A stretch of 64,000 bases of DNA, taken from assembly GCA_035575515.1 (NCBI GenBank), contig DATLXU010000127.1, positions 97,356 to 161,355 of the forward strand, read 5' to 3'. The DNA is from Blastocatellia bacterium (lineage in GTDB: Bacteria; Acidobacteriota; Blastocatellia; UBA7656). The translations under genes were made by a program, and so were the position numbers. Below the pieces are notes generated by a model that saw only the letters and a list, made by a program, of their open reading frames with translations, did not search any database and had not been told where the DNA came from. Positions 13,097-64,000 of this stretch are shown one piece after another (within the stretch, counting starts at the first letter, position 1; every line of letters starts with the position of its first letter).

Positions 13097-13190
13097 ACAT
13101 GGGAGACATCATCTTCATCGCGCTGACAATTGTTTTCTTCGCCTTGTCCGTCTGGTACGTCCGATTCTGCGAAAAGGTGTAGGAGCCAAG

Positions 13191-13283
13191 ATGACGAATA
13201 TCGAATACATAATCAGCGGAGTAATTGCCCTGCTGTTGCTCTTTTATCTGATGTACGCGCTACTCAAGCCAGAGAGGTTTTAG
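13191..13283 (+). CDS. kdpF: Potassium-transporting ATPase subunit F
   Basis: [30 protein letters not shown], cf. E. coli KdpF MSAGVITGVLLVFLLLGYLVYALINAEAF; missed by the 60-aa ORF cutoff. Confidence 0.8.
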
Positions 13284-18008: not shown

Positions 18009-18562
18009 AAAACTTTGTGACGGCTATATTGATGGCGATAGTGACGACGATTTTGCTTGGTCTGGTTTATCCGCTCGTCGTAACGGGACTCGCGCAGGTC
18101 ATATTCCCTGACAAAGCCAACGGGCAGTTGATCGTGCGCTATGGCACGGTCATAGGCTCGCGCATCATTGGCCAGCCTTTCGCATCGCCGCGCTACTTTC
18201 ATTCGCGGCCTTCTGCGGCGGGCGCGGGCTATGACGCGGGCGCGTCTTCAGGCTCGAATCTCGGCCCGACCAATAACGCTTTGATCGAGCGCGTGAAGAC
18301 GGATGTCGAAAGCCGACAAAAAGAGAATCCTAACGCGCCCGTGCCGATTGATCTGGTGACGGCTTCGGCTTCTGGGCTCGACCCGCACATCTCACCGGCA
18401 GCGGCAGAATTTCAGGTGCCGCGAGTGGCGCAAGCGCGCGGATTGAGTGTTGATGAGGTGCGCCGTCTTGTGCAAGAGCATACCGAAGGCAGGACGTTCG
18501 GGATATTAGGCGAGCCGCGCGTCAACGTGCTCGAATTGAACCTGGCGCTGGATAAAAAGTGA
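18005..18562 (+). CDS. kdpC: Potassium-transporting ATPase subunit C
   Basis: Single N-terminal TM helix plus [14 protein letters not shown], the KdpC signature; overlaps the kdpB stop. Confidence 0.88.
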
Positions 18563-18632
18563 AAAGTGAAAAGTGGATAACAGCGAGAAGCTTGCCTTAA
18601 CACTATTCACTATTCGCTTTTCACTATTCGAT
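18563..18632. repeat. Intergenic heptamer-repeat palindrome (aaaagtg)3 ... (cactatt)3
   Basis: aaaagtgaaaagtgaaaagtg ... cactattcactattcgcttttcactattc between kdpC and the downstream kinase. Confidence 0.6.
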
Positions 18633-21732: not shown

Positions 21733-21863
21733 AAAAGAGACGCGGCGACCCGAAGATGCGATAATATATTTGTGTCAAGCGCGCTGTCGCCGCGTCGCCC
21801 TATCGCCGCGTCTACGTGTCCACGCGTCTCCGCGTCGTTTCTTCCATTTACCTCGTCGCAATC

Positions 21864-30309: not shown

Positions 30310-30446
30310 GAGTCGAGGCGAAAAGGATGAGGGATGAAGACGGAAGGATGAATAAGAGTTATTGAATCTCGCATTTCAGGTTTGAGGTTTGAGATTTGAA
30401 ATCTGTTTCATCCTTATCCTTGCACGACCCCTGCCCCCTGAAGCCA
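30310..30446. repeat. Intergenic heptamer-repeat palindrome (aaggatg/agggatg)n ... (catcctt/atcctt)
   Basis: aaaaggatgagggatgaagacggaaggatgaa ... tttcatccttatccttg, plus an aggtttgaggtttgagatttgaaatct sub-repeat; same ggatga subfamily as 58070-58173. Confidence 0.6.
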
Positions 30447-34573: not shown

Positions 34574-35547
34574 TGTTTGCAACTATTCTTTCATCGCTGG
34601 CGAAAGCGGTCTTCAGCCTCGAAGCGGTTTACATAATGACGGGCGCGGTGCTGCTCGTCTTTGCCGCGATGACTTTTCGCGACCGTCAGAACCCGCGACG
34701 ACTTGGCAGCGCGCTTTTCTGGCTCATACTCGGATTGATATTCGCGCTTGGCAGCCTGCTTGAGTCATGGATAGTCGGATTGCTCATCATCGCGATGGTC
34801 GCGCTCGACGGCGCGGGCCGCGTCACTCGCGGCAGCCACAAAGAAGCCACAAAGCAAGAGCAGATCGCGAACGCGAGCCGATTGCGATACAAAATCTTTC
34901 TGCCCGTGCTGGCCATCCCTGTTGTCACCTTTGCGTTTGCGATTGCGTTTCTAAGTCTCGGCCTCAACGTCACGGACGGCGCGCTAGTCGGACTCGGCTT
35001 CGGAGGCGTCGCAGCAATGATCGTTTGCCTGAGGCTCACGGGCAGCAGCGCGCGACTGATGATGCAGGATGGCCGGCGGCTCAACGATGCGATGGGCACG
35101 CTGAACATATTGCCTCAGTTGCTCGCGTCGCTCGGAGTCATCTTCACCGCCGCAGGCGTTGGCAACTTGATAGCGAAAGGAATCATTCAGGTAGTCCCGG
35201 CGAATAACCTGTTCCTGCTCGTGCTCGCGAATTGTCTCGGCATGGCGATGTTCACGATAGTGACAGGCAATTCGTTTGCGGCTTTTCCTGTGATTGCTTC
35301 GGGCGTGCTTGTGCCGCTGCTCATCGTGCCGTATGACGTGAATCCGGCTATGGTCGGAATCATCACGCTGACGGCAGGCTCAAGCGGGACGCTGATGACT
35401 CCAATGGCGGCGAATTTTAATATAGTGCCTGCGGCGCTACTGGATATGCGCGATCAGTATGGCGTTATAAAATTTCAACTGCCGTTCGCGCTCGTAATCT
35501 GGTCATTGCACGTCGTGCTGATGTGGCTGATGATAAAACTGTTTTAG
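34570..35547 (+). CDS. DUF979-family membrane protein
   Basis: Polytopic membrane protein typical of the DUF969/DUF979 paired families. Confidence 0.55.
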
Positions 35548-35832
35548 GTTTCGGGTTCCGGCTTCAGGGTTCGGGAGTAAGAGCTCTTGTATTAATCAGC
35601 TTTCCCTGAATGTGAAACTCGGAGTCAGATTTTATTTGATTACTTCCGAGCGATGTTGTATAACGAAGTTGTCACGTCTATCGGTCTTGGAAATCCCTGT
35701 GCCAAGTTCTGATTGATTCGATGGCGAGGTTCGAGCCTGTCTCGGACGCGACAGACGAATTACGTCAACCAAAGGCTGCCTTCACAGTCTCAAAAAGAAT
35801 AAATACGCTTGCTGTTTATGAGAGGAGATTCT

Positions 35833-37273: not shown

Positions 37274-37359
37274 AACGGTTTAGGATTTTAGATTTTGGAT
37301 TGGCGGAGTTGGATCGTATTTAAGTGCAGAGGCTCTGCTTCTTCGATCCAAAATCCAAG
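37274..37359. repeat. Intergenic heptamer-repeat palindrome (ttggatt)n ... (aatccaa)n
   Basis: taggattttagattttggattggcggagttggatcg ... cgatccaaaatccaag; same heptamer subfamily as 56370-56479 and 62940-63051. Confidence 0.7.
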
Positions 37360-39846
37360 TCAGATGATTTTTTGTGCCACTTGAAGCACGCGCCAGTATG
37401 CGCGGCGAGCAACGCCGGGCCAGCTTCCGTTCAACACGGGCGTGGCGCGCGTCGCCGCTGATTCGTTCCAGCGGTTAGACCAGCCCGATAAATCCCACAG
37501 CAGGTCTGCGCCCTTCAAACCTAAATTTGTTAATTGCTCAGTCGGGCTGCGACCATTGGGCGGATAGCGATCCGCGTCTTTTTCGTCGCCGAATTTATTA
37601 TCGTGAATCCAGTTGTTTTCGGGCGTGGGACCGACATCGAAAGCCGTCCCCTTCGGAAAGATTATTTCGAGACTCACGACCGCGACGCCGAAGCTGTTGT
37701 TGCCGCAGACCGTGTTAGCGGTGACTTCGGTATTGTCTGCGGCCATTATCAAAATGCCCGTGCCCGGCTGAACGTTCGACACGATGGCGTTCGGATTGCC
37801 GAAGTTGACATGGTTATTAGCAATCACTCGATTGTTGCGAACGATGCAATCGCGCCCGACCTTCGAGACGTTGTTCGGCAGCACGAAAACCAGTATGCCG
37901 CCCGTGTTGTTCGTGACTTCGTTTTCTTCGACGACAGCGTTGATTGAGTTTTCAATCTCGATGCCGGTGACGCTGTCGTGAGCTTTGCATCTTCTGACAG
38001 CAATATCGCGCGACTGGCCAACGTAAATCGCGGCGTCGGCTATGCCTGACGCTTCAACATCTTCGATCGTCACGCCCGTGCAGCTCACGGGATAAACGCC
38101 GTACAGCCCCGTCTTATCAACTCGCAAATTGCGAAAGAGAGGGCGGAAGGCGTGCTGCACGACAACGCCGTTTGCGGTGTAGTTCTTCACGTCGAAGTTT
38201 TCGATGTGAAAATCGCTGCCCGTCGCAATCACCGCGTCGGACAAAATATCCTTCCCGTCGAAGACTGGCCGCGATGGATTTGATTGCGCATCGGTCGCTC
38301 CGATCAAAGTTATGCGGTCAAGATCAACGCTGATTGATTCGTGATAAACACCGGGCATGACGCGGATCGTATCGCCGGGTATCGCGCGATTGACCGCATC
38401 TTGAATTGACTCGCCCGACTTCACAGTGATCGTCTGCGGCTCGCTGCGGTTGGCGAACTGCTCGGCGGGCGAACCTGTGTTGAATTGCCGGGCAAGCTCG
38501 CGCGCAGGATTGTTCAATCGTGGCACGACGACGAGGCCCGAAGGCACGCGGTCGGGAATCTGCGGCAGATTCGATTCATCCGTGAGCGCGTAGAGGAACG
38601 CAATCAAATCCTGCTTCTCTTCTTTGGTGATCGTGTAGGTGTGAATCTTGTCGTCAATGCGAATCGTTTTTGCCTCAAGCCCGCGTTTGAATTCGTCGGA
38701 AAGCTCGCTTTTGAACGGCTCGCCTGAGCCTCCACCTGCGGCGTAAAAATCGAGCACCTCTTCGAGAGTCTTAAAGCGACCGTTGTGCATGTAAGGCGCG
38801 TTGAGCGCGACGTTGCGGAGCGTCGGCACTTTGAAGGCGAACTTGTTGCCTTCGCCCTTTGTCACGTCGAAGCGACCGAGATCGGGTTGCTTCGCATCGG
38901 TATCGGGCACGCCAATTATTTTGAAATCGCGGTTGGCAAACGTCGGCAGCCCGTGACACTCAAAGCAGCGCGTGCGGCCTGATCGAAACAGGTTGAAGCC
39001 GCGAATCTGCGACGCAGTGAGCGCCGTGCGGTCACCATTGACGTAGCGATCAAAGGGCGAATTGTTGGCCGTAAGCGTCCGCTCGAACGCGGCTATCGCT
39101 TTGACGACGTTATCGAACGTTACGCCTGCGCCGTCGCTTGCGCCGAAAGCTGAGTCGAACGCTTTCGCGTATTCAGGGATGGCTTTGAGTTCGCGAACGA
39201 GGTTGTCGGGGTCTTCGGCCATCTCGTCGGCGCTTGTGATCGGGCCTCTGGCCTGTTCTTCGAGGTCTGCGGCACGGCCATCCCAGAATTGCATGTGATT
39301 ATAAGCCGCGTTCCAGATAGTCGGCGCGCTGCGACGTATCGCGGTTCCGCCCGCGCGCTCAGGCCCAAGCCCGCGCCCGCCTCTGCCCATCGAGAGCGGG
39401 CGCGCGTCTGTGAATCCAAGGTCGGGATGATGACACGTCGCGCAGGAGATGTCATTTGCGCCCGAAAGAATTGGATCGAAGAATAACAAGCGGCCAAGCG
39501 CGACGCGCTCGTTGAACTTTGGATTATTGATGTCGTTGTCTGCGCGAACGACCATCGCGGGGAACGGGCGGCGAAGCCCGCCGCCGCCTTCCGCAACGCC
39601 CGCCGTGCCTTCATCGCCCACGAAGTCTTTCGGCATAGGCCACAGACCAAGAGCGAGCAGCGTGGCGAAGATAAGGGCGAGCGGTATGAAAATCCATTTC
39701 ATCCAGCGGCGTCGCGACCGGGCGCGCGGCTGGCTTTCTTCCATCTCGATTTGTTGCGCAGATGCGGTCATAGGGTTCGTGCCTCCGTGATGAATCGAAA
39801 GAAAGCTGAGAAGCGGCCAAGCGATTATATTGAACGCGCCGCGCAA
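37360..39846 (-). CDS. Di-heme cytochrome c peroxidase (CCP/MauG family) fused to a C-terminal right-handed parallel beta-helix (NosD/pectin-lyase-like) domain
   Basis: Two CxxCH motifs (CATCHH, CFECHG) in a CCP-like fold with PYMHNG; C-terminal ~350 aa of 22-25-residue beta-helix repeats ([29 protein letters not shown]). Confidence 0.75.
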
Positions 39847-43528: not shown

Positions 43529-43696
43529 AAGAGCAATTATGAACTATGAATGATGAATGATGAACCCTGATCGGTTTTTTCTTGTTCATCGCTAAATGGT
43601 CATACTGCTCCGCGAGGGTTTCATAGCGGGCGGGCTGACGGTTATACTTTTGCCTGCGGTGGGCGCAAGGAATCGTTCTTTATCACAAGGAGCGCA

Positions 43697-45082: not shown

Positions 45083-45157
45083 GGCGGCTATAGTTCAGTT
45101 GGTTAGAACGCCTGACTGTGGATCAGGAGGTCGTCGGTTCAAGTCCGACTAGCCGCC
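45083..45157 (+). tRNA. tRNA-His (anticodon GTG) with encoded G-1
   Basis: Hand-folded cloverleaf: G-1 opposite discriminator C, acceptor GCGGCTA/TAGCCGC, anticodon loop CTGTGGA, T-arm GTCGG-TTCAAGT-CCGAC. Confidence 0.8.
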
Positions 45158-45189
45158 CTTCATCGGCTCGATTATAATCAACCTTTTGC

Positions 45190-45263
45190 GGCGGGGTAGC
45201 TCAGTTGGTGAGAGCGTGGGATTCATAACCCCAAGGTCGGGAGTTCAAGTCTCCCCCCCGCTA
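45190..45263 (+). tRNA. tRNA with CAT anticodon (Met, or Ile2 if lysidine-modified)
   Basis: Acceptor GGCGGGG/CCCCGCT (G1-U72), D-arm GCTC-AGTTGGTGA-GAGC, anticodon loop TTCATAA, T-arm GGGAG-TTCAAGT-CTCCC. Confidence 0.75.
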
Positions 45264-50273: not shown

Positions 50274-50382
50274 TAAGACTACGGCTTTAGCCTGCGAGTT
50301 TCAATTTTCTTCGAGGCGTCGTAGGCTTTGAGGCTCGCAGCCGCGCTCTTTTCATGTGATACAATTCAAGCGCAACGAAACG

Positions 50383-50811
50383 ATGAGCATTCAAGCGAGC
50401 GAAAAGATTATTCATATAACCCAAGCCGTGCGGCGCGCGATTGAAGAGCACGCGCTTAGGTCGCGCCCGGCGGAATGCTGCGGCCTGCTCAGCGGGCGAA
50501 ACGGCACGGTCACAGATATTCACCCGCTGCGCAACTGCGCTGATAATCCTGAGACGAGATACTTCGCTTCGCCCGAAGATTTGTTTGCCGCGATGCGGCG
50601 CATACGCGAGTCGAACCAGATGCTTTTGGGAATCTATCATTCGCATCCGCGCACGGCACCTTATCCATCGGCGTCAGACATCGGTATGGCTTTCTACCCG
50701 GAAGCCGTCTACTTTATCATATCGCTTGAGCCGCAAATTGAACTGCGAGCTTTCAAAATCGAAAGCTCGCGCGTGGAAGATGTACAGGTGTCCGTGGTCC
50801 GAAGTCCGTAG
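50383..50811 (+). CDS. JAMM/MPN+ metalloprotease (Mec+/QbsD-like)
   Basis: E...HSHPRTAPYPSASD JAMM zinc motif; ~140 aa single-domain form. Confidence 0.75.
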   Translation: MSIQASEKIIHITQAVRRAIEEHALRSRPAECCGLLSGRNGTVTDIHPLRNCADNPETRYFASPEDLFAAMRRIRESNQMLLGIYHSHPRTAPYPSASDIGMAFYPEAVYFIISLEPQIELRAFKIESSRVEDVQVSVVRSP

Positions 50812-50885
50812 TCCGGTGTCTGCGAAACAGCGAGCGAAACAGATGGCTTCGAACATCGGACTACGAGCTTCTATCTAAAATTGTC

Positions 50886-51584
50886 ATGTCAACTGCGAAT
50901 AGAATAAATATCACAGCATTGCTATTCGGCCAGGCGCGCGAGATGATCGGAGCCGAATCGGTCGCGCTTGAGCTTGATGAGCCTGCAACGGTTGAAAGCG
51001 CGTTCGCTGCGCTCAAATCGAATCATCCGAAACTGGCTGAGATGGAACGCAGCCTGCTTTTCGCCATCAACGAAGAGTACGCGACGCGCGCAAGCCGATT
51101 GAAAGAGAACGACCGGTTGGCGATACTTCCGCCCGTAAGCGGCGGCGAGGAAGAAGATGTTTTCGAGATCACGCGCGAGCCGATAGACATCGCGGGGCTG
51201 AGAGCGCGAGTGCTTACGCCTGATTCGGGCGCGGTAGTCATCTTCGATGGAGTCGCGCGCAATAACACGAAAGGCCGTCGCACGCTTTATCTGGAATACG
51301 AAGGCTACACGGAGATGGCCATCAAGATGCTCCGGCAGATTGGCCGCGAGGCGCGCGAGCAGTGGCCGATAAATCGAATAGGGATCATTCACCGGCTTGG
51401 CCGCATAGAGATTAGCGAATCGAGCGTCGTCATCGTCGTTGCGTCGGCTCACCGCCGCGTCGCATTTGAAGCGTGCCGATACGCGATTGACCGTTTGAAG
51501 AAGATAGTTCCGATCTGGAAGAAAGAATATTTTGAAGACGGCGCGATTTGGGTCGAAGGCGAAGGCGCTCCGCCTCAGTGTTAA
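50886..51584 (+). CDS. moaDE: MoaD-MoaE fusion (molybdopterin synthase sulfur-carrier fused to the catalytic subunit) with an internal Gly-Gly processing site
   Basis: N-terminal ~85 aa ubiquitin-like MoaD ending PPVSGG, then an acidic linker and a MoaE domain (AVVIFDGVARN...LEYEGY...IVPIWKKE). Confidence 0.75.
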   Translation: MSTANRINITALLFGQAREMIGAESVALELDEPATVESAFAALKSNHPKLAEMERSLLFAINEEYATRASRLKENDRLAILPPVSGGEEEDVFEITREPIDIAGLRARVLTPDSGAVVIFDGVARNNTKGRRTLYLEYEGYTEMAIKMLRQIGREAREQWPINRIGIIHRLGRIEISESSVVIVVASAHRRVAFEACRYAIDRLKKIVPIWKKEYFEDGAIWVEGEGAPPQC

Positions 51585-53713: not shown

Positions 53714-54106
53714 ATGAGAATACCTTTCGACAAATGGCCGAAGCTTGTTTTCATTTTTGTTCCCGCAGCTATCACGATCATCGCCGCCGCAGTGCTTGCG
53801 GTTGAATACTTCCAACCCGATACGGCGAAAGCCATACGCCTCGTGAAAGAAAGCTCGTCGCGCAAAGAGAACTTCACCGTGCAACAATACCTCTACTCGA
53901 CTCTCTATCATTATAAGAACAATGGCGAAGCGATAGAGATAAACGGATGGCGCGCCGAGCCGTCAACAGACGAGCGCGCTCCGATTGTCGTGGAGTTCAG
54001 CTATACGGACGCAATCGGCCTTCACATCGCCCGATGGGGGGCTGATGTCAAACGCGGCGTTGTGATTCCGCTCAATGAAATAGCAAGCGACCTGTCGTGG
54101 CATTGA
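53714..54106 (+). CDS. Hypothetical membrane-anchored protein
   Basis: N-terminal TM (LVFIFVPAAITIIAAAVLAV), small extracytoplasmic domain. Confidence 0.4.
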   Translation: MRIPFDKWPKLVFIFVPAAITIIAAAVLAVEYFQPDTAKAIRLVKESSSRKENFTVQQYLYSTLYHYKNNGEAIEINGWRAEPSTDERAPIVVEFSYTDAIGLHIARWGADVKRGVVIPLNEIASDLSWH

Positions 54107-54134
54107 GTCTAAACGATGACTCACGTTTGAATCT

Positions 54135-54596
54135 GTGATTAGAAACGAGAAAGCAAAAGATCATTTTGGTCGGTTCACGACGCGTTCGTCTGAAGAGACT
54201 TTCGAGCTTGCGCGACGAATCGGCGAACAACTCAACAGCCGAGCAATCTTTTTGCTTAGCGGCGATCTCGGCGCGGGCAAAACCGTATTCGCAAAAGGAA
54301 TCGCCGCAGGACTCAAGATTGACCCTGTGGATGTCACAAGCCCGTCGTTTACGCTCATCAATGTTCACGAAGGCCGCTTGCGCCTTTATCACATTGACCT
54401 CTACCGGCTAGGCGAAGGCGCGTGCCCTGAGCTTGGGCTTGATGAAATCTTTGAAGATGAAAAAGCAATTACGATAATCGAATGGGCCGAAGCGTTGGGA
54501 TTTACGCCCGAAGGCGCAATTCGAGTCGAGATTCGATACCTTTCAGACACCGACCGCGAAATCAACATTCAACCTCCCGCGAGCGCGGCATCGTAA
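54135..54596 (+). CDS. tsaE: tRNA threonylcarbamoyladenosine biosynthesis protein TsaE
   Basis: P-loop LSGDLGAGKTVFAKG and HIDLYRL motifs. Confidence 0.85.
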   Translation: MIRNEKAKDHFGRFTTRSSEETFELARRIGEQLNSRAIFLLSGDLGAGKTVFAKGIAAGLKIDPVDVTSPSFTLINVHEGRLRLYHIDLYRLGEGACPELGLDEIFEDEKAITIIEWAEALGFTPEGAIRVEIRYLSDTDREINIQPPASAAS

Positions 54597-54742
54597 TTGC
54601 GATAAGAGTTCTCAGACACAAACCGGATGATTGTGAGCGCGCCTAAATTCTGGCAATCGGGCGCGTAACACGCAGTCTCGTATCGTTTCCGAACTTCAAT
54701 GTTCTTCGATAGAGCAAAGGCTCGTGCCGGCGGTGTAACGAT

Positions 54743-55702
54743 ATGGCAGCGCTTAAAGACAAGATCACGAACGCGCTCAACGAAGCGCGCATACTGATAC
54801 TGGGCGCGCACGTTCTGCTCGGCTTTCAGTTCCGCTCCGTCTTTGAACAAGGCTTCGAGTCGCTGCCCGAACACACAAAGTCTCTCAAGCTCGCAGCGCT
54901 CGCGTTGATGATAATCGCAGTCGCCCTGCTTATGACGCCGAGCGCGTATCACAGAATTGCTAATGAAGGCGAAGATACTAAAGATATGCATTCCATCACA
55001 TCGGTCTTTATAACGCTGGCGCTGATGCCTTTCGCGCTGGGGCTGGGCATAGACTTTTTCGTTGCGACAGAAAAACTCTTTGGCACAGCCATCGGCGCAA
55101 TGTCGGGCGTGGCGGCCAGCCTCGTCGCGCTGTTTTTCTGGTATGGACTTGAACTATTTGCTAAGGGAAAACCCGCGCGCAAGGGGGAGCAGTCAATGAG
55201 CAAGAAAGAGCAAGCATCAACCGGGACCAGGCTCAAAGACAAGATAAAGCATGTGCTTACTGAGGCAAGGACAGTGCTGCCTGGCGCTCAGGCGCTGCTG
55301 GGATTTCAATTCGCCACGATGCTTGTCGAGAGCTTCGACAAGCTGCCCGATTCGTCAAAATACATCCATCTGGCGAGCCTCGCGCTCGTGGCGTTGAGCA
55401 CAGTGTTGCTGATGACTCCTGCGGCTTATCATCGCATCGTTGAAGAGGGCGAGGACACAAAACACTTCCACAACTTTTCGAGTCGCGTGCTGTTAGCGGC
55501 CATGATCCCGCTCGCTTTAGGCATCTGCGGGGATTTCTTTGTCGTTGCGCGCAAGATCAGCGATTCGGTCTCTTTCTCTTTGATCGCTTCAATAGTTTTG
55601 ATGGCTATATTCTTCGGCCTGTGGTTCGGCTTCACTGCATATCGCAGAGAGCAGCGCGAAGAAATTCTCGAACGGCACAGGCGACAGGAGGCGGCGGATT
55701 GA
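54743..55702 (+). CDS. Membrane protein made of two ~150-aa internal repeats
   Basis: Both halves share LKDKI..L.EAR..LPGAQ.LLGFQF...LP...K...LA.LAL...LLMTP.AYHRI.EGEDTK...ALG...DFFV. Confidence 0.6.
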   Translation: MAALKDKITNALNEARILILGAHVLLGFQFRSVFEQGFESLPEHTKSLKLAALALMIIAVALLMTPSAYHRIANEGEDTKDMHSITSVFITLALMPFALGLGIDFFVATEKLFGTAIGAMSGVAASLVALFFWYGLELFAKGKPARKGEQSMSKKEQASTGTRLKDKIKHVLTEARTVLPGAQALLGFQFATMLVESFDKLPDSSKYIHLASLALVALSTVLLMTPAAYHRIVEEGEDTKHFHNFSSRVLLAAMIPLALGICGDFFVVARKISDSVSFSLIASIVLMAIFFGLWFGFTAYRREQREEILERHRRQEAAD

Positions 55703-55808
55703 AGAAGGCAGAAGTAAAAACGCAAAAGGTAAAGTTTAGGAGAAGCGTAGAAATCAAAGTGTATCCTCGCTTCCCACTTTTACCTATTGCATTTTTACTT
55801 CTGCCTTA

Positions 55809-56369
55809 TCAAACCGTCATCACTTCTTTTTCTTTGTGCTCTGAAAGCTCGTTGATTCGAGCAATGTGCTGGTCGGTAAGTTTTTGAATCTGATCGAGAC
55901 CGTCTTTTTCAACGTCTTCGGAAATCTCTTTGTCCTTGAGCATCTTCTTGAGGTGATCGTTCGCGTCGCGGCGGATGTTGCGAACCGCAGTGCGATGCTC
56001 TTCCGCAATCTCGTGAACGACTTTCACCATCTGCTTGCGGCGCTCTTCGGTGAGCGGTGGAATCGGCACGCGGATCAGCTTGCCGTCATTTGAAGGATTA
56101 AGCCCAAGCTCGGAAGCGCGAATCGCTTTTTCGATGTTGCCGAGTTGCGTCGGATCAAAAGGCTGAACGGTCAGCAGCGTCGCTTCCGGCGCGTGAATAG
56201 TCGCAACCTGATTGAGCGGCATCTCCGTGCCGTAGTATTCAACCGTCACGTTGTCGAGCAGGCTCACCGATGCCCGTCCTGTTCGCACAGCCGCAAGCTT
56301 TTTTCTCACATCATCAACCGCAGCGTCCATCCGCCTGCGCGCGTCGTTGATTATCTCTTTGACTTCCAT
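55809..56369 (-). CDS. frr: Ribosome recycling factor
   Basis: Full-length RRF signature ([11 protein letters not shown]...[13 protein letters not shown]). Confidence 0.92.
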
Positions 56370-56479
56370 TCAACTCCTCCACCATTTCGATTTTCGATTT
56401 TGGATTGCGTAGATTGGATTCCCAGATGAACGCGAGTATGACGCTCCTTCAATCCAAAATCCAGCACTAAAATCCAGAA
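56370..56479. repeat. Intergenic heptamer-repeat palindrome (cgatttt/ggattgc)n ... (caatcca/aaatcca)n
   Basis: cgattttcgattttggattgcgtagattggattcc ... caatccaaaatccagcactaaaatccag between pyrH and frr. Confidence 0.7.
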
Positions 56480-57241
56480 TCAGGAAGGTTGCGCAGCCGA
56501 CTCCAGGAGAGATTCGTCAGCGCACACGACCGAGCCGACTCTTTCGCCGCGCACGACGCGGGCGATGTTGCCGTGCTTGTAGAGATTGAAAACGTGAATC
56601 GGTATGCCTCGCTCGCGGCACAGGCTGATTGCTGACGTATCCATCACCTGAAGGTCGCGCTGAATCACGTCCAGGTAAGTTAATCTCTCAAGCATCGTCG
56701 CCGTTTCGTCCTTCGTCGGGTCGGCGGTGTAAATGCCTTCGACTTTCGTGGCCTTGAGTATGGCATCGGCGCGAATCTCAAGCGCGCGAAGCGCGGCAGC
56801 CGAATCCGTTGTGAAATATGGATTGCCCGTGCCTGCTGCGAATATGACGACGCGCCCCTTTTCGACGTGGCGAATGGCGCGGCGGCGGATGAACGGCTCG
56901 GCTATCTTGTTCATTTCGATTGCAGACATGACGCGCGTGAAGACGCCCTGCTTTTCGAGCGCGTCCTGAAGCGCCAGCGCATTAATCACAGTCGCAAGCA
57001 TCCCCATCGAATCAGCCGATGCGCGGTCCATTCCTTTGGCCGACAGCGCGACCCCGCGAAAGATGTTCCCTCCGCCGACAACTATCGCAACCTCGACGCC
57101 AAGATCGTGAACGTCTTTGATCTCTTGAGCGATGCGCGTAATGGTCGCAGGGTCAATGCCGTAACCTTGATCGCCCATCAGCGCTTCGCCCGACAGCTTC
57201 AGCAGTATTCGCTTGTAAACCGGTTTTTGATCCGCAGACAT
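56480..57241 (-). CDS. pyrH: UMP kinase
   Basis: [11 protein letters not shown]...[10 protein letters not shown] signature. Confidence 0.92.
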
Positions 57242-57342
57242 AAATAGCTATCAGCTTTCAGCCATCAGCTTTCAGCAAGAAGTTTAATTAGTCTGCAATC
57301 AGGCTTTCAATAACTCTTCTGGTTGCTGACCGCTGAATGCTG

Positions 57343-57378
57343 GTGGCAATAATAAAAAAGCCTCTCTTGCGAGAGGCT
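57343..57378 (-). terminator. Rho-independent terminator downstream of tsf
   Basis: Minus strand: agaagcctctcgcaagagaggc hairpin followed by ttttttattatt. Confidence 0.7.
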
Positions 57379-57389
57379 TCTGTAGCTCG

Positions 57390-58061
57390 TTACTTGTTGC
57401 CGCCGAGCAGGTCTTGAACTTCGGCTCCGAGATCGGTGCTGCGTTTCTCCAGACCTTCGCCCATTTTGAAGCGAACGAAGCGGCGCACCTTGATGTTCTC
57501 GCCTGTCTTCGAGATCATCTGATTCACAAGATCGCCTACGGTAATGTTCTGGTCTTTCACGAAGGGCTGCTCCATCAGGCAAGTCTCCTGATAGAACTTG
57601 CTCAAGCGGCCTTCGACTATTTTATCGAGCACCTGCTGAGGCTTGTTAACGTTTTTCGGATCATTCTTCGCCTGCTCAAGCGCTATCTCGCGCTCTTTAG
57701 CAAGCACGTCTTCCGGCACGTCTTCTTTGGTGACATAGCGAGGCTCCGCCGCCGTCACGTGCATTGCGAGGTCGTGAACGAAGCGACGGAAATCATCCGT
57801 GCGCGCGACGAAATCCGATTCGCAATTGACTTCAATCAGCACGCCGACTTTTCCGCCCGCGTGTATGTATGAATCAACAAGCCCTTCGGCTGCGATGCGG
57901 CCCGATTTCTTGGTTGCCGTCGCAAGCCCTCGCTTGCGCAAAATCTCAATGGCTTTCTCTTCGTTGCCGCCGGCTTCGGTGAGAGCAGACTTGCACTCCA
58001 TCATTCCCGCGCCGGTCTTCTCTCTAAGAGCTTTGATTGCTGCTGGTGTTATTGTTCCCAT
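57390..58061 (-). CDS. tsf: Elongation factor Ts (short form)
   Basis: [30 protein letters not shown]-like N-terminus. Confidence 0.9.
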
Positions 58062-58069
58062 TACTGCTT

Positions 58070-58173
58070 GATCTCCCTATTGCAAGGGATGAGGGATGAA
58101 GGATGAAAAGGATGAATCAGAGAACTAAGGCTTCTCCGTTTCATCCCTCATCCCTCATCCCTCATCCTTAGAT
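58070..58173. repeat. Intergenic heptamer-repeat palindrome (gggatga)n ... (ctcatcc)n
   Basis: agggatgagggatgaaggatgaaaaggatgaa ... tttcatccctcatccctcatccctcatcc between rpsB and tsf. Confidence 0.8.
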
Positions 58174-59361
58174 TTATTCTGCTTCCGCTTTCTCTGCTTT
58201 CGGAGCGTCTTCTGCCGGAGCGGGAGCCATCTGGCCCGGCGTCGCCTCGGCGCCAGAGGGTGACTGCTCGCCTTCGCGCCCGAAGGCCCCCGGCACGTGC
58301 TGCGCCGCAGGCACAGTCTCTGCCGGTACGCTTTCACGTTCAGCGTCAAACGATTCGTGATGGCCGCGATGGCCCGGCTGCGACATCTGAACATCCGACT
58401 GCGTCACGGTTGCGGCCAAGTCTGCGCCTGACGGAGCGGCGGCTCCGGTCTCAGGCGGGACAGGAGCGAGCGGCTCCGGGATAGGAGGCGCTCCGGGCGG
58501 CACGTAAGTCGTGCGACGGCGCTCGCCGCGCTTGCGACCGCCGCGCTCGCGTCGTTCACCGCGCTCAGGTCTTTCGGCGCGCGGCGCGGCTTCCGCCCCG
58601 GCTGCTGCGGCAGCGACTTCGGCGCCTTCTGCAGCCTCGCCGATTTCAGCCGCGCCCTCTTTCATCATCTGCTGGCCTTCGATTATCGCGTCGGCCATCT
58701 TCGCCGCGAAAAGTCTCACGGCGCGAAGCGCGTCGTCGTTGCCGGGCACGATGTAATCAATGCCGTCAGGATTGCAGTTCGTGTCAACTATCGCCACGGT
58801 CGTGATGCCGAGCTTGTTGGCTTCGCGGACCGCGATCTCTTCTTTGTTGGAATCAATAATGAAGATCACGTCGGGCAATCGCTTCATGTCGCGAATGCCT
58901 GCGAGGTTCTTCTCAAGTGAAGCGTGCTCGCGCTCAAGGTGCAACCGCTCTTTCTTGGTGAGCGTATCGAAGCGGCCATCGGTTCTCATGGCCTCGATGT
59001 CTTTCATCCGCTGGATTGATTTTTGAACCGTCTGGAAGTTCGTGAGCAGCCCGCCGAGCCACCGCTGATTGACGTAGAACTGACCGCAGCGTTTCGCTTC
59101 TTCTTCGACTGCATCCTGCGCCTGCCGCTTTGTGCCTACGAAGAGGAAGCTCGCGCCTTCCATCGCTTTCTGCGTTACAAATTTGACTGCTTCTTTGAAA
59201 AGCCGCTGGGTCTTCTGAAGATCAATTATGTAGATTCCGTTGCGCTCGCCGAAGATGTACTCTTTCATCTTCGGATTCCACCGCTTGACCTGGTGCCCGA
59301 AATGAACGCCAGCCTCAAGCAGTTCTTTCATTGTTACGGTAGCCAATCGTTCCTCCTTCAA
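58174..59361 (-). CDS. rpsB: 30S ribosomal protein S2 with a long Ala/Pro/Glu-rich C-terminal extension
   Basis: [11 protein letters not shown]...RWNPKM S2 signature; ~140 aa low-complexity acidic tail. Confidence 0.9.
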
Positions 59362-59496
59362 TGCTGAATTGGTTTATGTACTCACTGGCCCGCGTCCCCT
59401 GATGTCCTGCCGGGACAACCAATCACGAGAGCCAGCAATGGACTATTGGTCATTTGTCTTTCGTCCCTTGTGAAAATAACAAATGACCAAAACGCT

Positions 59497-59892
59497 TTAG
59501 CGTTTTGAAAACTGGAAGCGCTTGCGTGCGCCCTTCTGGCCGTACTTCTTGCGCTCCTTCGCGCGCGGATCGCGCGTGATGAAACCGGCCTTTTTCAGTC
59601 TAACTCTGAATTCAGGGTTGAGGTCCACAAGCGCGCGCGTGATGCCGTGACGCACCGCGCCCGCCTGGCCCGCTATGCCGCCGCCGTCGACGTTTACGAG
59701 TATGTCGAACTTGCCTACTGAATCTGTTAAGTGAAGCGGCTGGCGGATGACCATTCTGTGCACTTCGTTCTTGAAATAGTCCTCGAATTTGCGCTTGTTG
59801 ACAATAATCTCTCCGGTACCGGGCTTGATAAACACGCGCGCCGTTGCGCTCTTGCGGCGGCCCGTTCCGTAATTCTGAATCGCTTCTGCCAC
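59497..59892 (-). CDS. rpsI: 30S ribosomal protein S9
   Basis: [12 protein letters not shown]...[16 protein letters not shown]. Confidence 0.92.
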
Positions 59893-59949
59893 TATCGAAT
59901 CTCCTTCAAATCACACAATCGGCGCTTCGGTGCAGCCGGACTTGTGGTT

Positions 59950-60393
59950 TTACTTCTTTCCGATCTCAAAAACTTCGGGCTGCTGCGCCTGATGCGGGTG
60001 ATCTGTGCCGACATAGACCTTCAGCTTCTTGCCCATCTTGCGACCGAGCTTGTTCTTTGGAAGCATCCCTAAAATTGCCGACTGAAGTATGCGTTCCGGG
60101 TGCTTCTGCAATTGCTTCTGCGCCGTGACCTCTTTGAGTCCGCCGGGCCAGCCCGTGTGATGGCGATAGACTTTGTCCTGCCACTTGTTGCCCGTGAAGA
60201 CCACCTTCTCGGCGTTGATGACGATGACGTGATCGCCGACGTCTAAGAATGGCGTGTAGGTGGGCTTGTTCTTTCCCATCAATAGACGCGCGGCCTCAGT
60301 TGCGAGGCGACCGACGGTTTTGCCGTCCGCGTCAATGATAAACCACTTGCGGTTCTGCTCAAGGTTCTTACCGCTTGGAACGAATGTGCTCAT
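59950..60393 (-). CDS. rplM: 50S ribosomal protein L13; start taken at the internal Met of the 160-aa ORF
   Basis: [17 protein letters not shown]...[14 protein letters not shown]13 signature. Confidence 0.9.
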
Positions 60394-60925
60394 GATACGA
60401 ATCTCCAAATTTTTCGTAAAGAAGACGAACAAAAAGAATACGAGATGGGATATACATTGTCAAGGCGCGCATAAAGTTAAAAATCATGGCTTATTTGCGC
60501 TCGCGCGATGAATAAAAAATGGCTGCGACATAAGAAAGAAGTTGACACGCGAGCGCGGCCTGGTTTATCTTGGGTCATCCGCCAACGCGCGGTTTTGCTA
60601 TTGTTGCTTGCGAAAAATTTTTGAACCTGCAAACGGGCAGCGCGCGTAGTTCATAGAGTCAAGCGGAGAGAGTTTAATGAAAAGCGCACACGAAAAATTC
60701 ATAGCTGATCCGGTCGGCGTTGTCGGCCTGGCTGCGCTTGAAGACTGCCTTGCGCTTTACCCGACGGCGCAGCCCGTCCCGATGCCTTTTACCGGAATGC
60801 AACAGGATACTCGTAACGGACCATAACAATTTTACCAGCGTCAAGCGCGACAGCCGCCAGCGTCAAGTTTGACGTTGGCGGCTTTTGATTTTTACGGCAG
60901 CAATTAGGCTGCAACGGAGCCAATC

Positions 60926-62332
60926 ATGTCATCAGCAACATACGGCGAGCTGATAAAAGGCAATCGCAACTTTCGCAGGCTCTGGACGGGCCAGGTAATA
61001 AGCGAGCTTGGCACCTGGTTTTCCTTCATTGCCGAGCTTGGGCTTATCAGGATGTTTTCAGGCTCGCCGCTCGCAACGACCGCGCTGCTTGTCGCAAGGC
61101 TGCTCCCGTTTCTGATGGTCGCGCCGTTTGCTGGCGTCTTTGTTGACCGCCTTTCTCGCAAACGGATAATGATTGCGACAGATATCATTCGCGCCGCAGT
61201 TGCGCTCCTGTATCTTGCGGCTGCTGCGGCTGGCTCGGTCTGGGCCGTCTGCTTGTGCAGCGCATTGATGTCATCGCTTGCGGTCTTCTTCGAAGCGGCA
61301 AAGAACGCTGCGATGCCGAATCTGGTGGCGCCGCGCGAGCTGCTCACGGCGAACATACTGATGTACTCGACGCGCTTTCTTCAATTCACGCTGGGCGCTG
61401 CGCTCGGCGGAGTCACGGCGGCGCGATTCGGTTACAACATAGCCTTTGTCGTGGATTCGGCATCGTTCGTCGCGTCGGCGCTCTACGTCGCGCTGATACC
61501 TGCTGCGACAATGAAGAGGCAGGCGAAGGCTCAAAGCTCAACGGTTGCCGCAGCCGCTTCATCAGCAAGCGAGTTGCAGGTTGATAAAGAAACGAGCTTA
61601 GTTGATGTGCTTGCTGCTGAAGAAGTGTGCGGCGCGACTGTTCACGCAAGCGAGCAGGTGGTGCAATCGCCCGCGCGATTCACATCGGATTTGCGCGAAG
61701 GGCTTCATTACATCTGGACGACGCCGTTCGTTCGCGGGGTGATACTCGTGAACATCGGATGGGCGATGGGCGGCGGGATGCATAGCGTCCTGTTCGATCA
61801 GATAGGCGGCCACCTCTTCGCTCAAGGCGAGCGAGGCGACTGGAGCGTGGCCATGCTGTTCACGGCAAGCGGCGTAGGTCTCTTTATCGGCATGGCTATG
61901 GCGCGGCGCATTGGCGGATGGATGAGCAAGGAAAGGCGCGCGAGTCATTTTGTCGGCTGGTCGCTCATCGCGCACGGCTTGATCTTTTCAGCGGGCGGAT
62001 TGATGCCGTCGCTGGCGCTCGTCGCGCTGTGCATAGGCATGAGTCGGCTTGTAATCGCAGCCGAGTTCGGCGTGCAGGAGACGATGGTGATGCGCGTGAT
62101 ACCTGACGAGTATCGCGGGCGCGTGTTCACAACGGACCGCGCGCTTGAGCTTGGGATGATGACGATTTCAATGATCATCGGCGGGTGGATGCTCAAAGCG
62201 ATGAGTCCGCTCACGGTGATGATAGTTTCGGGATTGCTATCGGCGATTCCCGGCATTGCGTGGCTGCTTGCGGTGAAGTTTGCGGAGTTCCGCATCCCTG
62301 CGCGGGCGGTGCGCGAAAGCTACGGTGATTAG
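60926..62332 (+). CDS. MFS transporter
   Basis: 12-14 TM helices with MFS-type loop motifs (GVFVDRLSRKR). Confidence 0.8.
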   Translation: MSSATYGELIKGNRNFRRLWTGQVISELGTWFSFIAELGLIRMFSGSPLATTALLVARLLPFLMVAPFAGVFVDRLSRKRIMIATDIIRAAVALLYLAAAAAGSVWAVCLCSALMSSLAVFFEAAKNAAMPNLVAPRELLTANILMYSTRFLQFTLGAALGGVTAARFGYNIAFVVDSASFVASALYVALIPAATMKRQAKAQSSTVAAAASSASELQVDKETSLVDVLAAEEVCGATVHASEQVVQSPARFTSDLREGLHYIWTTPFVRGVILVNIGWAMGGGMHSVLFDQIGGHLFAQGERGDWSVAMLFTASGVGLFIGMAMARRIGGWMSKERRASHFVGWSLIAHGLIFSAGGLMPSLALVALCIGMSRLVIAAEFGVQETMVMRVIPDEYRGRVFTTDRALELGMMTISMIIGGWMLKAMSPLTVMIVSGLLSAIPGIAWLLAVKFAEFRIPARAVRESYGD

Positions 62333-62592
62333 TTGCAAGGAAGGAGACACGGCGAAATTTTGCAGCTTGGATTCGCGCGGAGGAATGACTATGAACTTGC
62401 TCTGGACAATTTTCTTGATGTGCCTGAGCGTAGGGATAGTCGCCGTGTCGCTGCGTCTCAGAGAGCCGCGCAAATCAAGTGCTGATGCGCCGCCGCGGCC
62501 ATAACTTTCTTGCAACCACCGTAGCTTTGAAGTACCATTTTGGCAGGTAACGAAACTGGTCTTTTATTAACCATACAAGGAGGAATATTCCT

Positions 62593-62835
62593 ATGAGCTA
62601 CTCTGAGACCGAAGCGCTCAAGCAGCAGCTTTTGTCGACCGACGCACACTTTGCGGAGCTTGCGCACCAACACAGCGAGTACGAGAAGAGGTTGAGCGAG
62701 CTGGCCGCGCTGCATTATCCGAGCGCTGAGGAACAGATGGAAGAAGCCACGTTGAAAAAGAAGAAGTTATACTTAAAAGACCAGATGGAAGAAATCCTGC
62801 GCAGCTACAAGCAAAAGCAGGCGGCAGGGCATTAA
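62593..62835 (+). CDS. DUF465 (YdcH-like) small coiled-coil protein
   Basis: 80-aa helical protein (HFAELAHQHSEYEKRLSELA...) typical of DUF465. Confidence 0.55.
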   Translation: MSYSETEALKQQLLSTDAHFAELAHQHSEYEKRLSELAALHYPSAEEQMEEATLKKKKLYLKDQMEEILRSYKQKQAAGH

Positions 62836-62939
62836 TTTTTAGAGCGAGAGCCGAAAGCGCGCCATTATAGAAAAGAGAATCGCTGGTTGCCTACGAGCGG
62901 AAAATGTTCGCGCACCCGTTGCGCGCTTGCTGCGCTCGT

Positions 62940-63051
62940 CGTGGGTGACCAGCGCTTTTTATTTTGGATTTTGGATCGAAGAACCATTGTGTTTTTGCCC
63001 GTCCGAAATCCTTTCGTAATCCAAAATTTAAAATCCAAAATCTAAAATCGC
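62940..63051. repeat. Intergenic heptamer-repeat palindrome (attttgg)n ... (aaaatcc)n
   Basis: tattttggattttggatcg ... cgtaatccaaaatttaaaatccaaaatctaaaatcg upstream of psd. Confidence 0.7.
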
Positions 63052-63672
63052 ATGGCAAAAGAAGGCATCCCATTCATTATTCTATTTATAATCCCGGCGG
63101 CAATCTTTGCTGCGCTCGGATGGTGGATTGCTGCGGGCATATGCTTCGCGCTCGCTGCGTTTATGGCCTTCTTCTTCCGCGACCCTGAGCGTAACTGCCC
63201 GACCGATGAAGCTTTGATTCTCTCTCCGGCGGATGGCCGCGTCGTCGTTGTCGCTCCGCTTGAGCCTGACGCGAAAGATTCTCCCACGCAGATTTCGATA
63301 TTTCTTTCGCCGATGGATGTTCACATCAACCGCTCGCCGATTGCGGGCGAGATAGTTGACTTCGTTCACAAGCCGGGCGCATTTCACATCGCGTCGCGCG
63401 ACATTGCATCTGTAGAGAACGAGCAGAACATCGCCACGATTCGCGGGCGATTCGTCACCGTTCAGATTCGCCAGATTGCGGGCGTGCTGGCCCGCCGCGT
63501 CGTCTTCTGGAAAAAGATAGGCGACCGAGTTCAGGCGGGCGAGCGCGTCGGGCTGATGAAATTCGGCTCGCGCATGGACGTTTTAGTGCCTGCGGAAGTC
63601 GAAGTGCTTGCGCGCAAAGGCGACCGCGTCACGGGCGGCATCACGGTGATAGCTCGCGTGCGCTGCGATTGA
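63052..63672 (+). CDS. psd: Phosphatidylserine decarboxylase proenzyme (short form)
   Basis: N-terminal TM helices; FLSPMDVH; self-cleavage LMKFGS-R site. Confidence 0.85.
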   Translation: MAKEGIPFIILFIIPAAIFAALGWWIAAGICFALAAFMAFFFRDPERNCPTDEALILSPADGRVVVVAPLEPDAKDSPTQISIFLSPMDVHINRSPIAGEIVDFVHKPGAFHIASRDIASVENEQNIATIRGRFVTVQIRQIAGVLARRVVFWKKIGDRVQAGERVGLMKFGSRMDVLVPAEVEVLARKGDRVTGGITVIARVRCD

Positions 63673-63717
63673 CTTCCATGCATTCCGGCGAGTCTAATGC
63701 TTTCATGGGAGAAAGCG

Positions 63718-64000
63718 ATGGCTGACAAAACATCAAACGCATTGCCGGGTGATATTCAGGACTCTCGCTTGCGGCGTCGCTTCCGCAAGGGCGTCTTCGT
63801 AGTTCCGAGTCTGCTCACGACGGCAAACATCTTCTGCGGCTTTTATTCAATTATGGAATCGCTCGCAGGGACGCGCGCCATTGAAGGCGGGAATTTCACA
63901 GCCGCCGCAGACCACTTTGACCGCGCCGCGATCAATATAGGCTTTGCCGCGCTGTTTGACCTGCTTGATGGTCGCGTCGCGCGCATGACGAACGCGACGA
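63718..64000 (+). CDS. pssA: CDP-diacylglycerol--serine O-phosphatidyltransferase, 3'-truncated by the window edge
   Basis: CDP-alcohol phosphatidyltransferase motif DLLDGRVAR near the window end; follows psd. Confidence 0.7.
   Translation, partial: MADKTSNALPGDIQDSRLRRRFRKGVFVVPSLLTTANIFCGFYSIMESLAGTRAIEGGNFTAAADHFDRAAINIGFAALFDLLDGRVARMTNAT

Follow-up and report, generated by a model that had tools for sequence, protein, structure and literature searches.

Heptanucleotide-repeat palindromes in the intergenic spacers of a Blastocatellia genome and of other Acidobacteriota

Introduction

What are the palindromes that recur between neighbouring genes in a 64,000-nucleotide stretch of the genome of a soil acidobacterium of the Blastocatellia (GenBank assembly GCA_035575515.1, contig DATLXU010000127.1, positions 97,356 to 161,355; hereafter the window), and how could they have arisen? 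An initial annotation of this DNA, centred on the spacer between rpsB and tsf, had described at least ten spacers of one design, in which a tandem array of a 7-nt unit is followed by a spacer and by an array of the complementary unit. It had regarded the sequences as locus-specific, and had suggested either a templated or slippage-type origin or a structure-selected RNA element. The excess of heptamers in bacterial DNA has been without explanation since the 1990 report of short tandemly repeated repetitive (STRR) sequences in cyanobacteria, and our full-text literature searches returned no description of elements like these for Acidobacteria. The elements make up about one sixth of the non-coding DNA of the window and are present in most of the acidobacterial loci that we sampled. 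They are best filed as a multi-family version of heptanucleotide-repeat palindromes, common across Acidobacteriota, with behaviour like that of repetitive extragenic palindromic (REP) sequences.

Results

A heptamer hairpin fills the rpsB-tsf spacer

The focal element occupies positions 58085-58169 and, like the other elements below, is given without a strand. On the + strand it reads AGGGATGAGGGATGAAGGATGAAAAGGATGA, a 25-nt loop and TCATCCCTCATCCCTCATCCCTCATCCTT, with the arms (GGGATGA)n at 58085-58115 and (TCATCCC)3.9 at 58141-58169. The genes around it lie on the minus strand in the order rpsB (59361-58174), tsf (58061-57390), pyrH (57241-56480) and frr (56369-55809). The window has 55% G+C, and the best matches of its EF-Ts among species-representative genomes are from Pyrinomonadaceae, at ~70%. 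On the mRNA strand, the 112-nt spacer begins with UAA AUCUA (AGGAUGA GGGAUGA GGGAUGA GGGAUGA) AACGGAGAAGCCUUAGUUCUCUGAU and continues with (UCAUCCU UUUCAUCC UUCAUCC CUCAUCC CU) UGCAAUAGGGAGAUCAAGCAGUA AUG. Folding of the RNA transcribed from the minus strand gave one long stem of -60.9 kcal/mol, compared to -32.2 +/- 3.3 kcal/mol for 200 shuffles (z = -8.6); folded as DNA, the element reached -26.3 kcal/mol (z = -5.5). The stem extends from 4 nt past the rpsB stop codon (58174-58176) to 23 nt short of the tsf ATG (58061-58059), leaving the Shine-Dalgarno sequence GGGAG outside. No T-tract follows the stem, and a terminator scan did not flag the element.

Period-7 tracts and their inverted partners exceed chance

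We counted 13 period-7 tracts in the window (at least 3 copies, at least 85% self-match) against 0.3 in 30 shuffles (maximum 2), and 4 exact period-7 runs of at least 18 nt against 0.0 in 50 dinucleotide-type shuffles. Periods 4, 5 and 8-12 showed no excess and period 6 a small one (3 vs 0.13), and Tandem Repeats Finder reported 18 period-7 arrays in the 64 kb. Eleven of the 13 tracts fell within the 13% of the window called as non-coding; the remaining two counted as coding because an open reading frame (ORF) start had been called too far upstream, so that 11-13 of the 13 are non-coding.

We catalogued 15 hairpin elements in the window, amounting to 1358 nt or ~16% of its non-coding DNA. Co-directional genes flank 12 of these, which bears out the earlier count of at least ten; divergent spacers account for two and a convergent spacer for the last. 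The shared architecture and heptad periodicity described at the outset are borne out by this catalogue: a 7-nt array of 2-5 units, a loop of ~17-70 nt and a complementary array, with lag 7 the best autocorrelation lag in nearly every arm. Single arms are internally periodic and not self-complementary, and about 10 unit types occur in the window alone. The examples cited in the initial annotation are all present, but the 3' arm of the one at 18555-18629 is an imperfect complement and the one at 43529-43600 is weak (z = -1.1).

The design is not confined to the window. Our sample outside it comprised tsf loci from genomes and metagenomes together with contigs of closer relatives, P0006 and P0008 not among them. 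We found 184 period-7 tracts in 1.02 Mb of related loci; in a 689-kb subset, intergenic tracts numbered 87 for period 7, as against 40, 11, 29, 0 and 7 for periods 5, 6, 8, 9 and 10. Tract density per 10 kb was 2.7 in loci labelled Blastocatellia, 1.6 in other loci labelled Acidobacteriota and 0.37 in ten loci labelled as other phyla, where all three tracts came from one metagenome-assembled genome (MAG). An inverted partner lay within 160 nt of 106 of 177 tracts (60%), a direct partner accompanied 11 of 177 (6%), and the random-flank null was 1.6%. For the sampled 1 Mb, it is excluded that tracts and inverted partners occur only as often as in Markov-matched sequence. When the order of units within one arm was permuted, 64 of 68 hairpins lost stability, by a mean of 5 kcal/mol (p = 4e-11). 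The two arms thus correspond at each position, which goes beyond a pair of arrays built from one motif.

Elements turn over rapidly between conserved flanks

We compared the rpsB-tsf spacer with its orthologues, the informative relatives being those with EF-Ts 89-90% identical to that of the window. The flanks, namely the 3' end of rpsB and the ribosome-binding region AGGGAGAT..GTAATG, are conserved. Between them, the window carries (GGATGAG)4, and the 90% relative L170 has the same GGATGAR hairpin as (GGATGAA)2, with a different loop. The place is taken by (GTGACAR)3 in L172 and by (AAAAGTG)4 in L173; L167 and L168 keep only remnants (GATGAAT..TTCATCCTCTCATCC), and L169, L087 and L088 have other, non-heptamer structures. 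Comparison of orthologous spacers thus revealed fast turnover, with fewer copies or another family between kept flanks, and the two units of L170 in place of four speak for the slippage-type origin that had been suggested.

In the spacers before pyrH and frr, the relatives have only the A/C-rich arm on the side of the start codon; L170 has GCTGAAAGCTGA there, and tracts resembling (CAAAATC)n are present in all relatives. In the window this arm is expanded, and an inverted copy stands beside the upstream stop codon. Relatives and window together thus show one arm alone, a short pair of arms, an expanded pair and substitution by a different family.

A common three-part layout was seen in the rpsB-tsf spacers of the Terriglobia loci L036, L038, L041, L043, L044, L045, L047 and L059 (~3780-3990): a single G-rich heptamer tract after the rpsB stop codon, a conserved hairpin GACCCGCGCGGGTC..CCGGCGCGGGTC, and a heptamer hairpin that is mostly (GTTTCNR)n. 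The (GTTTCNR)n..(YNGAAAC)n hairpin of several Terriglobia MAGs stops 6-9 nt short of the tsf AUG, and the linker is A/U-rich.

Units are diverse and fall into small recurrent families

The 177 tracts contain 103 canonical heptamers, often with a conserved core of 5-6 nt and a variable position. Units containing GAAAC recur in 33 tracts, and those built on AGCT and on ACTGA are likewise frequent. Within the window, three loci of the TTTTGGA family share TGGATTTTGGATYGAAGRA and AATCCAAAAT..AAAATC beyond the repeat, with unrelated loops; two elements of the GGATGAR family share GGGATGAARACGGAR, and two of the AGCTNTC family share TCAGCTTTCAGCA. Across genomes, the element between kdpC and the kinase gene in the window and the rpsB-tsf element of L173 are members of one family, down to an imperfect, 14-nt-periodic 3' arm TTCACTATTC..TTTTCACTATTC. 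The GTGACAR unit of the L172 rpsB-tsf hairpin occurs at another locus in L167, and the GGATTTT unit in the rpsI-rpsB spacer of L169. Such idiosyncratic variants, common to the copies of a family, point to common descent rather than convergence. The description of the sequences as locus-specific therefore stands as regards the diversity of units, but not as regards their confinement, since small families recur across loci and genomes. For the same reason, the contrast that had been drawn with REP sequences and bacterial interspersed mosaic elements (BIMEs), which share sequence, is one of degree.

Stems typically span from stop codon to start codon, with the G-rich arm first

In 11 of the 12 co-directional spacers the start of the stem lies within 7 nt of the upstream stop codon, and in 8 of the 12 it ends 0-11 nt before the start codon; stems typically reach to within ~25 nt of the next start. 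The stop codon lies within the first unit at asd (CAG UAG G), kdpC (AAG UGA) and the JAB gene (CCG UAG). Stems this close to the start codon often leave no Shine-Dalgarno motif (532, 7234, 18549, 57249), and the element in the divergent spacer at 62952 is arranged likewise; in the rest (6541, 56396, 58085) a Shine-Dalgarno sequence separates stem and start.

On both strands alike, 45 unit families open with the G-rich (and T-rich) arm, compared to 16 with the opposite order (p = 3e-4). We rejected transcription polarity as the meaning of a G-rich arm placed 5' in the transcript (33 vs 8), since the bias is strand-independent: a palindrome composed of A, loop and the reverse complement of A reads alike on both strands, and its arm order cannot report the direction of transcription. 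We also rejected the idea that the period avoids multiples of 3 so as to close all three reading frames by stop codons, as the 5' arm has more stop triplets in 30 cases and fewer in 31; arms that close all three frames number 11 of 73.

The view that the elements are not simple terminators was upheld, in that a scan of positions 54000-64000 flagged none of the five elements there and did flag the terminator after tsf (57381-57356). The elements do not have the make-up of an intrinsic terminator, in which a GC-rich stem with a 3-8-nt loop is followed by a T-tract, and those beyond 54000-64000 have no T-run on reading the sequence.

Other elements of the window

Downstream of tsf, on the minus strand, a classical terminator with a GC stem and T-tract (57356-57381) precedes the element of the tsf-pyrH spacer (57249-57345), which belongs to the AGCTNTC/TCAGCNN family and lies 7 nt before the pyrH ATG (57241). 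This terminator is context and not a heptamer element; nearly every base of it is kept in all close relatives (L087, L088, L167-L173), so that the presumed rpsB-frr operon has an internal attenuator besides its heptamer hairpins. The pyrH-frr spacer contains a TTTTGGA-family element (56396-56481), whose A/C-rich tract runs to 56385, just 5' of the frr Shine-Dalgarno sequence GGAGGAG. The convergent spacer between frr and a DUF6328 gene holds a 112-nt near-perfect palindrome (55700-55811; z = -11) with a weak period of 7 (GTAAAAA/GCAAAAG), and related units are found downstream of frr in L010, L014 and L018.

Upstream of dapB, the hairpin (GGGGTCR)n...(YGACCCC)n at 532-615 (tract from 531; unit GGGGTCA) fills the spacer from 1 nt past the stop codon of ORF 617-1174 to 3 nt before the dapB ATG (528). 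The asd-lysC element (2737-2835) has a (CAGTAGG)3.6 tract from 2730, with the asd stop TAG (2832-2830) within the first unit of the 5' arm of the transcript. Between the TPR and thymidine kinase genes, an outer stem (GYCGGGT)n...(GRCCCCY)n encloses an inner hairpin (6541-6637), and the spacer between the GGT and TPR genes contains an AGCTNTC-family hairpin (7234-7321) that begins 2 nt after the stop codon and ends 6 nt before the ATG. The element between kdpC and the histidine kinase gene (18549-18630) is (AAAAGTG)3...(CACTATT/CGCTTTT)4, in which CACTATT of the 3' arm is an imperfect complement; the kdpC stop TGA (18560-18562) lies inside its first unit, and 2 nt separate the end of the stem from the ATG at 18633.

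The element at 30317-30445 is composite. Its outer hairpin, of the GGATGAR family (~30324-30421), holds a second heptamer tract in its loop (TTTGAGG, 30373-30402), and a lone C-rich tract (CCCCTGN) fills 30425-30445, right up to the ATG at 30446. A (GGTTYCG)n hairpin with an only weakly periodic 3' arm (35547-35626) starts at the stop codon of the DUF979 gene. A TTTTGGA-family hairpin (37284-37361, tract from 37279) separates the genes for cytochrome c peroxidase and aquaporin. The (ATGAATG)n tract in a divergent spacer (43543-43600) has only a short complementary partner, which makes it a weak or half element. In the spacer between the JAB protease gene and the ThiS-MoaE gene, (GTCCGWR)n...(CGGACTAC) forms a hairpin (50795-50877) whose stem ends 8 nt before the ThiS-MoaE ATG (50886). 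The final seven codons of the JAB gene and its stop (50809-50811) are part of the tract, so that changes in the repeat would alter the tail of the protein. The JAB/MPN protease gene and the ThiS-MoaE fusion adjoin each other (50356-51584) as a sulfur-carrier-type pair. In the second divergent spacer, the A/C-rich arm of a TTTTGGA-family element (62952-63051) ends at the ATG of the phosphatidylserine decarboxylase gene (63052).

Neighbouring features

RpsB (58174-59361, minus strand) is 395 residues long, with an S2 domain to about residue 250 and a long low-complexity tail, and the length of the protein differs among relatives (321-399 residues) in this tail. Upstream, the rpsI-rpsB spacer (59362-59496, minus strand) contains a structured leader, GATTGGTTGTCCCGGCAGGACA ... 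GAGTACATAAACCAATTCA, that is kept in L167, L168 and L169. It matched no Rfam family at gathering score, and may be an undescribed autoregulatory leader of S2.

The kdp-linked kinase gene carries an octamer array (GGAGACGC)n at its 3' end (20488-20518), and the complement of this array (GCGTCTCC/GCCGCGTC) is found at 21786-21837, 1.3 kb away, beside a local hairpin at 21738-21800. The pair brackets the whole KdpD-N/Usp gene (20587-21732), and looks like a period-8 cousin of the heptamer design with its arms far apart. The only transposase-like ORF found in the window is a fragment of IS4/IS5 type (DUF4096) at 13130-13708, between a porin gene and kdpA.

Two gene calls overreach into hairpins: the kinase ORF extends to a GTG at 18573 and a hydratase ORF to a TTG at 30389, with plausible starts at the ATGs at 18633 and 30446. 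In addition, an independent assembly, L003 (the end of a Logan contig from SRR24677604, with position 1 corresponding to 58166 of the window), breaks exactly inside the focal repeat arm.

Discussion

Origin and possible function of the elements

Our results can be brought together by regarding the elements as REP-like extragenic palindromes of heptanucleotide simple-sequence repeats, generated at the level of DNA and transcribed into stems, a reading to which we give roughly even credence. Genesis at the DNA level is reasonably supported by the series of states in the spacers of relatives. Under such a scheme, 7-nt arrays would grow and shrink through slippage, the second arm would be an inverted copy of an existing array made by template switching across the spacer, and whole elements would be copied or exchanged among intergenic sites. 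Once transcribed, on either strand, the spacer would form a very stable stem-loop, like that of a REP sequence or an intercistronic hairpin. A function of these hairpins in the mRNA is plausible. The stem would shield and segment the message and hide the C-rich arm, and downstream initiation would depend on melting of the base of the stem, for instance by the ribosome terminating upstream; translational coupling of this kind would be a plausible effect. The order of the arms could also matter, as with the G-rich arm first the C-rich arm would emerge, in either transcript, once its partner was available, and a Rho-loading site might not be exposed.

A number of observations weigh against this proposal. 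The stability of the sense strand exceeded that of the antisense strand in 23 elements and fell below it in 24, and G·U pairs were not in excess on the transcribed strand (113 vs 106). Element density per kb was 0.53 in co-directional, 0.43 in convergent and 0.31 in divergent spacers. This near-equal density means that a role in translation inside operons cannot be general. Gene calls in the relatives were crude, greedy longest ORFs. The hairpins are absent from the corresponding spacers of relatives whose EF-Ts is 78-89% identical, and this speaks against their being indispensable. Six independent assemblies (1.9-6.7 kb, 100% identical overall) showed no variation in copy number, and their identity to the window makes them uninformative on instability. 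The permutation test also breaks the unique pairs next to the loop, and so somewhat overstates the mirroring of the repeats. As to mobility, no target-site duplications were seen at the element boundaries, loops differ among members of a family, none of the ~60 window ORFs scanned was a Y1/HUH transposase or a reverse transcriptase, and we know of no enzyme that mobilises the elements.

Two suggestions of the initial annotation were overstated or found no support in these data. Placing the elements inside operons goes too far in view of their similar density in the three types of spacer and of flanking genes that are in many cases functionally unrelated, such as GGT/TPR/thymidine kinase and peroxidase/aquaporin. 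Taken together with the lack of strand asymmetry, this leaves no positive evidence for selection on one transcript. For an RNA element selected for its structure, no strand-specific signal was found, and the hairpin itself is often missing in close relatives.

Much of this evidence would also suit a neutral or selfish by-product, in which replication or repair in the lineage is prone to 7-nt slippage and template switching and seeds heptamer arrays and quasi-palindromes wherever the DNA tolerates them, the hairpins have no function and harmful ones are purged. The quick gain, loss and replacement between close relatives agree with it, as do the similar density in every spacer type, the lack of strand asymmetry and the many unrelated units. 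In addition, heptamer repeats are over-represented in many bacteria, and this is attributed to polymerase slippage in work cited in PMC4692102. We consider such an origin possible but unlikely, since the strong G-first bias would need an extra mutational or selective asymmetry, and a hairpin of one family or another persists at rpsB-tsf in four lineages despite complete replacement of its sequence. The (GTTTCNR)n hairpins 6-9 nt before the tsf ATG in several Terriglobia MAGs, and the occupation of ~16% of the non-coding DNA in a compact genome, point the same way. If selection acted instead on the hairpin, for attenuation between cistrons, for translational coupling or as a site for RNase III or RNase E, the arrays would be an easy and mutationally robust way to build it. 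Architecture kept at the same spacer with unrelated sequences, stems bounded by stop and start codons, and an A/C-rich arm that often stands in place of a Shine-Dalgarno sequence before the ATG (532, 7234, 18549, 57249, 62952) speak for this, and TAACTGA arrays in Beggiatoaceae end 1 nt before start codons that lack a ribosome-binding site (PMC4679880). However, the transcribed strand has no excess of G·U pairs or stability, convergent and divergent spacers are occupied, relatives with 78-89% identical EF-Ts lack the hairpin in the same spacers, no element matches Rfam, and the arms often have periodic mismatches at the variable position of the unit; selection of the RNA structure appears distinctly unlikely. 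With Rfam 15, the whole window at gathering score yielded only two tRNAs, tRNA-His(GTG) and tRNA-Met(CAT), in tandem at 45084-45263 (369-nt spacer).

Non-autonomous mobile elements, like MITEs (miniature inverted-repeat transposable elements) or REPINs, could be moved by an enzyme that recognises the shape of the hairpin, a candidate being a Y1/HUH transposase as found in Acidobacteria. The same family does occur at different loci in different genomes with idiosyncratic variants in common, replacement between kept flanks is cassette-like, and the element at 30317-30445 has one heptamer hairpin inside the loop of a second. Acidobacteria have a distinct group of Y1 transposases, 'TIRYT', and the two members of a REP dimer typically lie 20-100 bp from each other (Di Nocera et al., 2013, PMC3733652). 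Against such mobility, loops are not conserved within families, neither target-site duplications nor conserved termini are seen, dozens of families would each need to be recognised, no transposase lies near any element of the window, and slippage alone explains the copy-number series from L170 to the window. We therefore regard mobile elements as very unlikely, and rejected a MITE on account of the unrelated loops and the lack of boundary duplications. Integron attC sites were also rejected, as there are no R''/R' core sites and no integrase, and the flanks are housekeeping genes (rpsB, tsf, pyrH, frr, asd, lysC). Non-B DNA, in the form of a G-quadruplex or i-motif, or arrays of sites for a DNA- or RNA-binding protein that covers 7 nt (a cold-shock protein, for example), would account for the G-runs in two window families (GGGATGA, GGGGTCA) and for a conserved 5-6-nt core with a variable position, which resembles an array of binding sites; CspB binds one heptamer per protein (reviewed in PMC4679880). 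G4/i-motif formation has been proposed for G-rich heptamers of Xanthomonas and Nostoc. Here, however, a GGG or CCC run occurs in only 16 of 184 tracts (9%), for which we rejected the G-quadruplex as a general explanation, 103 canonical units make a single sequence-specific binder unlikely, and the unit-by-unit mirroring of arms would not be needed; an explanation of this kind is scarcely probable. A bolder reading, which is quite improbable, takes the elements as a mobile or self-copying class defined by architecture and not by sequence. A structure-guided process (a TIRYT-type Y1/HUH transposase, a repeat adder resembling reverse transcriptase or a lineage-specific template switch) would copy palindromes to new intergenic sites and exchange families between the conserved flanks, and hairpins from stop to start would be co-opted as couplers gated by the ribosome, with the C-rich arm hidden from Rho.

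Many mirrored families that turn over within a genus-level clade offer a natural series for telling slippage, template switching and mobility apart. Any mechanism must explain the G-first rule, a concrete asymmetry that holds on both strands and is found in Xanthomonas as well. On the practical side, short-read assemblies fragment at the elements, and gene callers extend ORFs into the hairpins.

Comparison with known systems

The GGGAATC repeats of Xanthomonas are intergenic tandem 7-nt units, mostly in 2-5 copies, and most occur as two arrays on opposite strands that could form a stem-loop; all 70-75 pairs are convergent, with the G-rich array first (Rehm et al., 2015, PLoS One, PMC4692102). 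The type of repeat, single or paired, is usually kept between species while its length varies, and the repeats are transcribed (PMC4692102). The elements described here are also intergenic 7-nt arrays, present as inverted pairs (106 of 177 tracts) and G-first (45 vs 16 families). They differ in that Xanthomonas has essentially one unit (GGGANTN) with G4 potential, whereas each genome here has dozens of unrelated units, 9% of the tracts having G-runs, and entire families are substituted for each other at one spacer among close relatives.

Cyanobacterial STRR sequences, in Calothrix PCC 7601 and Nostoc/Anabaena, are tandem heptanucleotides in non-coding DNA, as cited in PMC4692102, where a preference for period 7 is attributed, again in cited work, to the footprint of the replicative polymerase. 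Heptamers in non-coding DNA, several unit types and an excess of period 7 are also seen here, but 60% of the tracts are paired, and they occur in another phylum and a genome of 55% G+C. In the 1990 description by Mazel and colleagues, STRR sequences reportedly come in several unit types per genome, lie also in intercistronic spacers of operons and show an over-representation of period 7. Unlike both of these systems, with one or a few consensus units throughout the genome (GGGAATC; STRR1-3), our 177 tracts contain 103.

REP sequences, BIMEs and REPINs are small palindromes in spacers, within operons and at 3' ends, where REPs form inverted dimers 20-100 bp apart; they fall into families, differ in presence and absence, and have been proposed to act in mRNA stabilisation or attenuation (Di Nocera et al., 2013, PMC3733652). 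Like these, the heptamer elements are extragenic, hairpin-forming, repeated and arranged as inverted pairs. A REP, however, is an imperfect palindrome of 20-40 bp with a GTAG/CGTC tag, in hundreds of near-identical copies, often with a REP-associated tyrosine transposase (RAYT), whereas the elements here have no common tag (only CAGTAGG happens to contain GTAG) and their families are small and numerous, with 2-3 copies per 64 kb.

TAACTGA repeats are found in Beggiatoaceae, cyanobacteria and Bacteroidetes as 2-6 copies that end a few nt before a start codon without a ribosome-binding site, also in ribosomal-protein operons, and related 7-mers interrupt the arrays (MacGregor, 2015, PMC4679880). 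They consist of one unit, oriented relative to the gene and almost never inverted (1 of 170 sets; PMC4679880), which sets them apart from our elements. The heptamer arrays here likewise end near start codons, often without a Shine-Dalgarno sequence. Intercistronic hairpins that serve as RNase III sites or stabilisers, as in the early mRNA of phage T7, the malEFG REP of E. coli and puf of Rhodobacter, are non-terminator stem-loops that were defined experimentally. They resemble the present elements as stable intercistronic stem-loops of varied sequence and common architecture, but have no internal tandem periodicity. The closest system in architecture is the GGGAATC pairs of Xanthomonas, in composition the STRR sequences of cyanobacteria, and in niche and proposed role the REP/BIME dimers.

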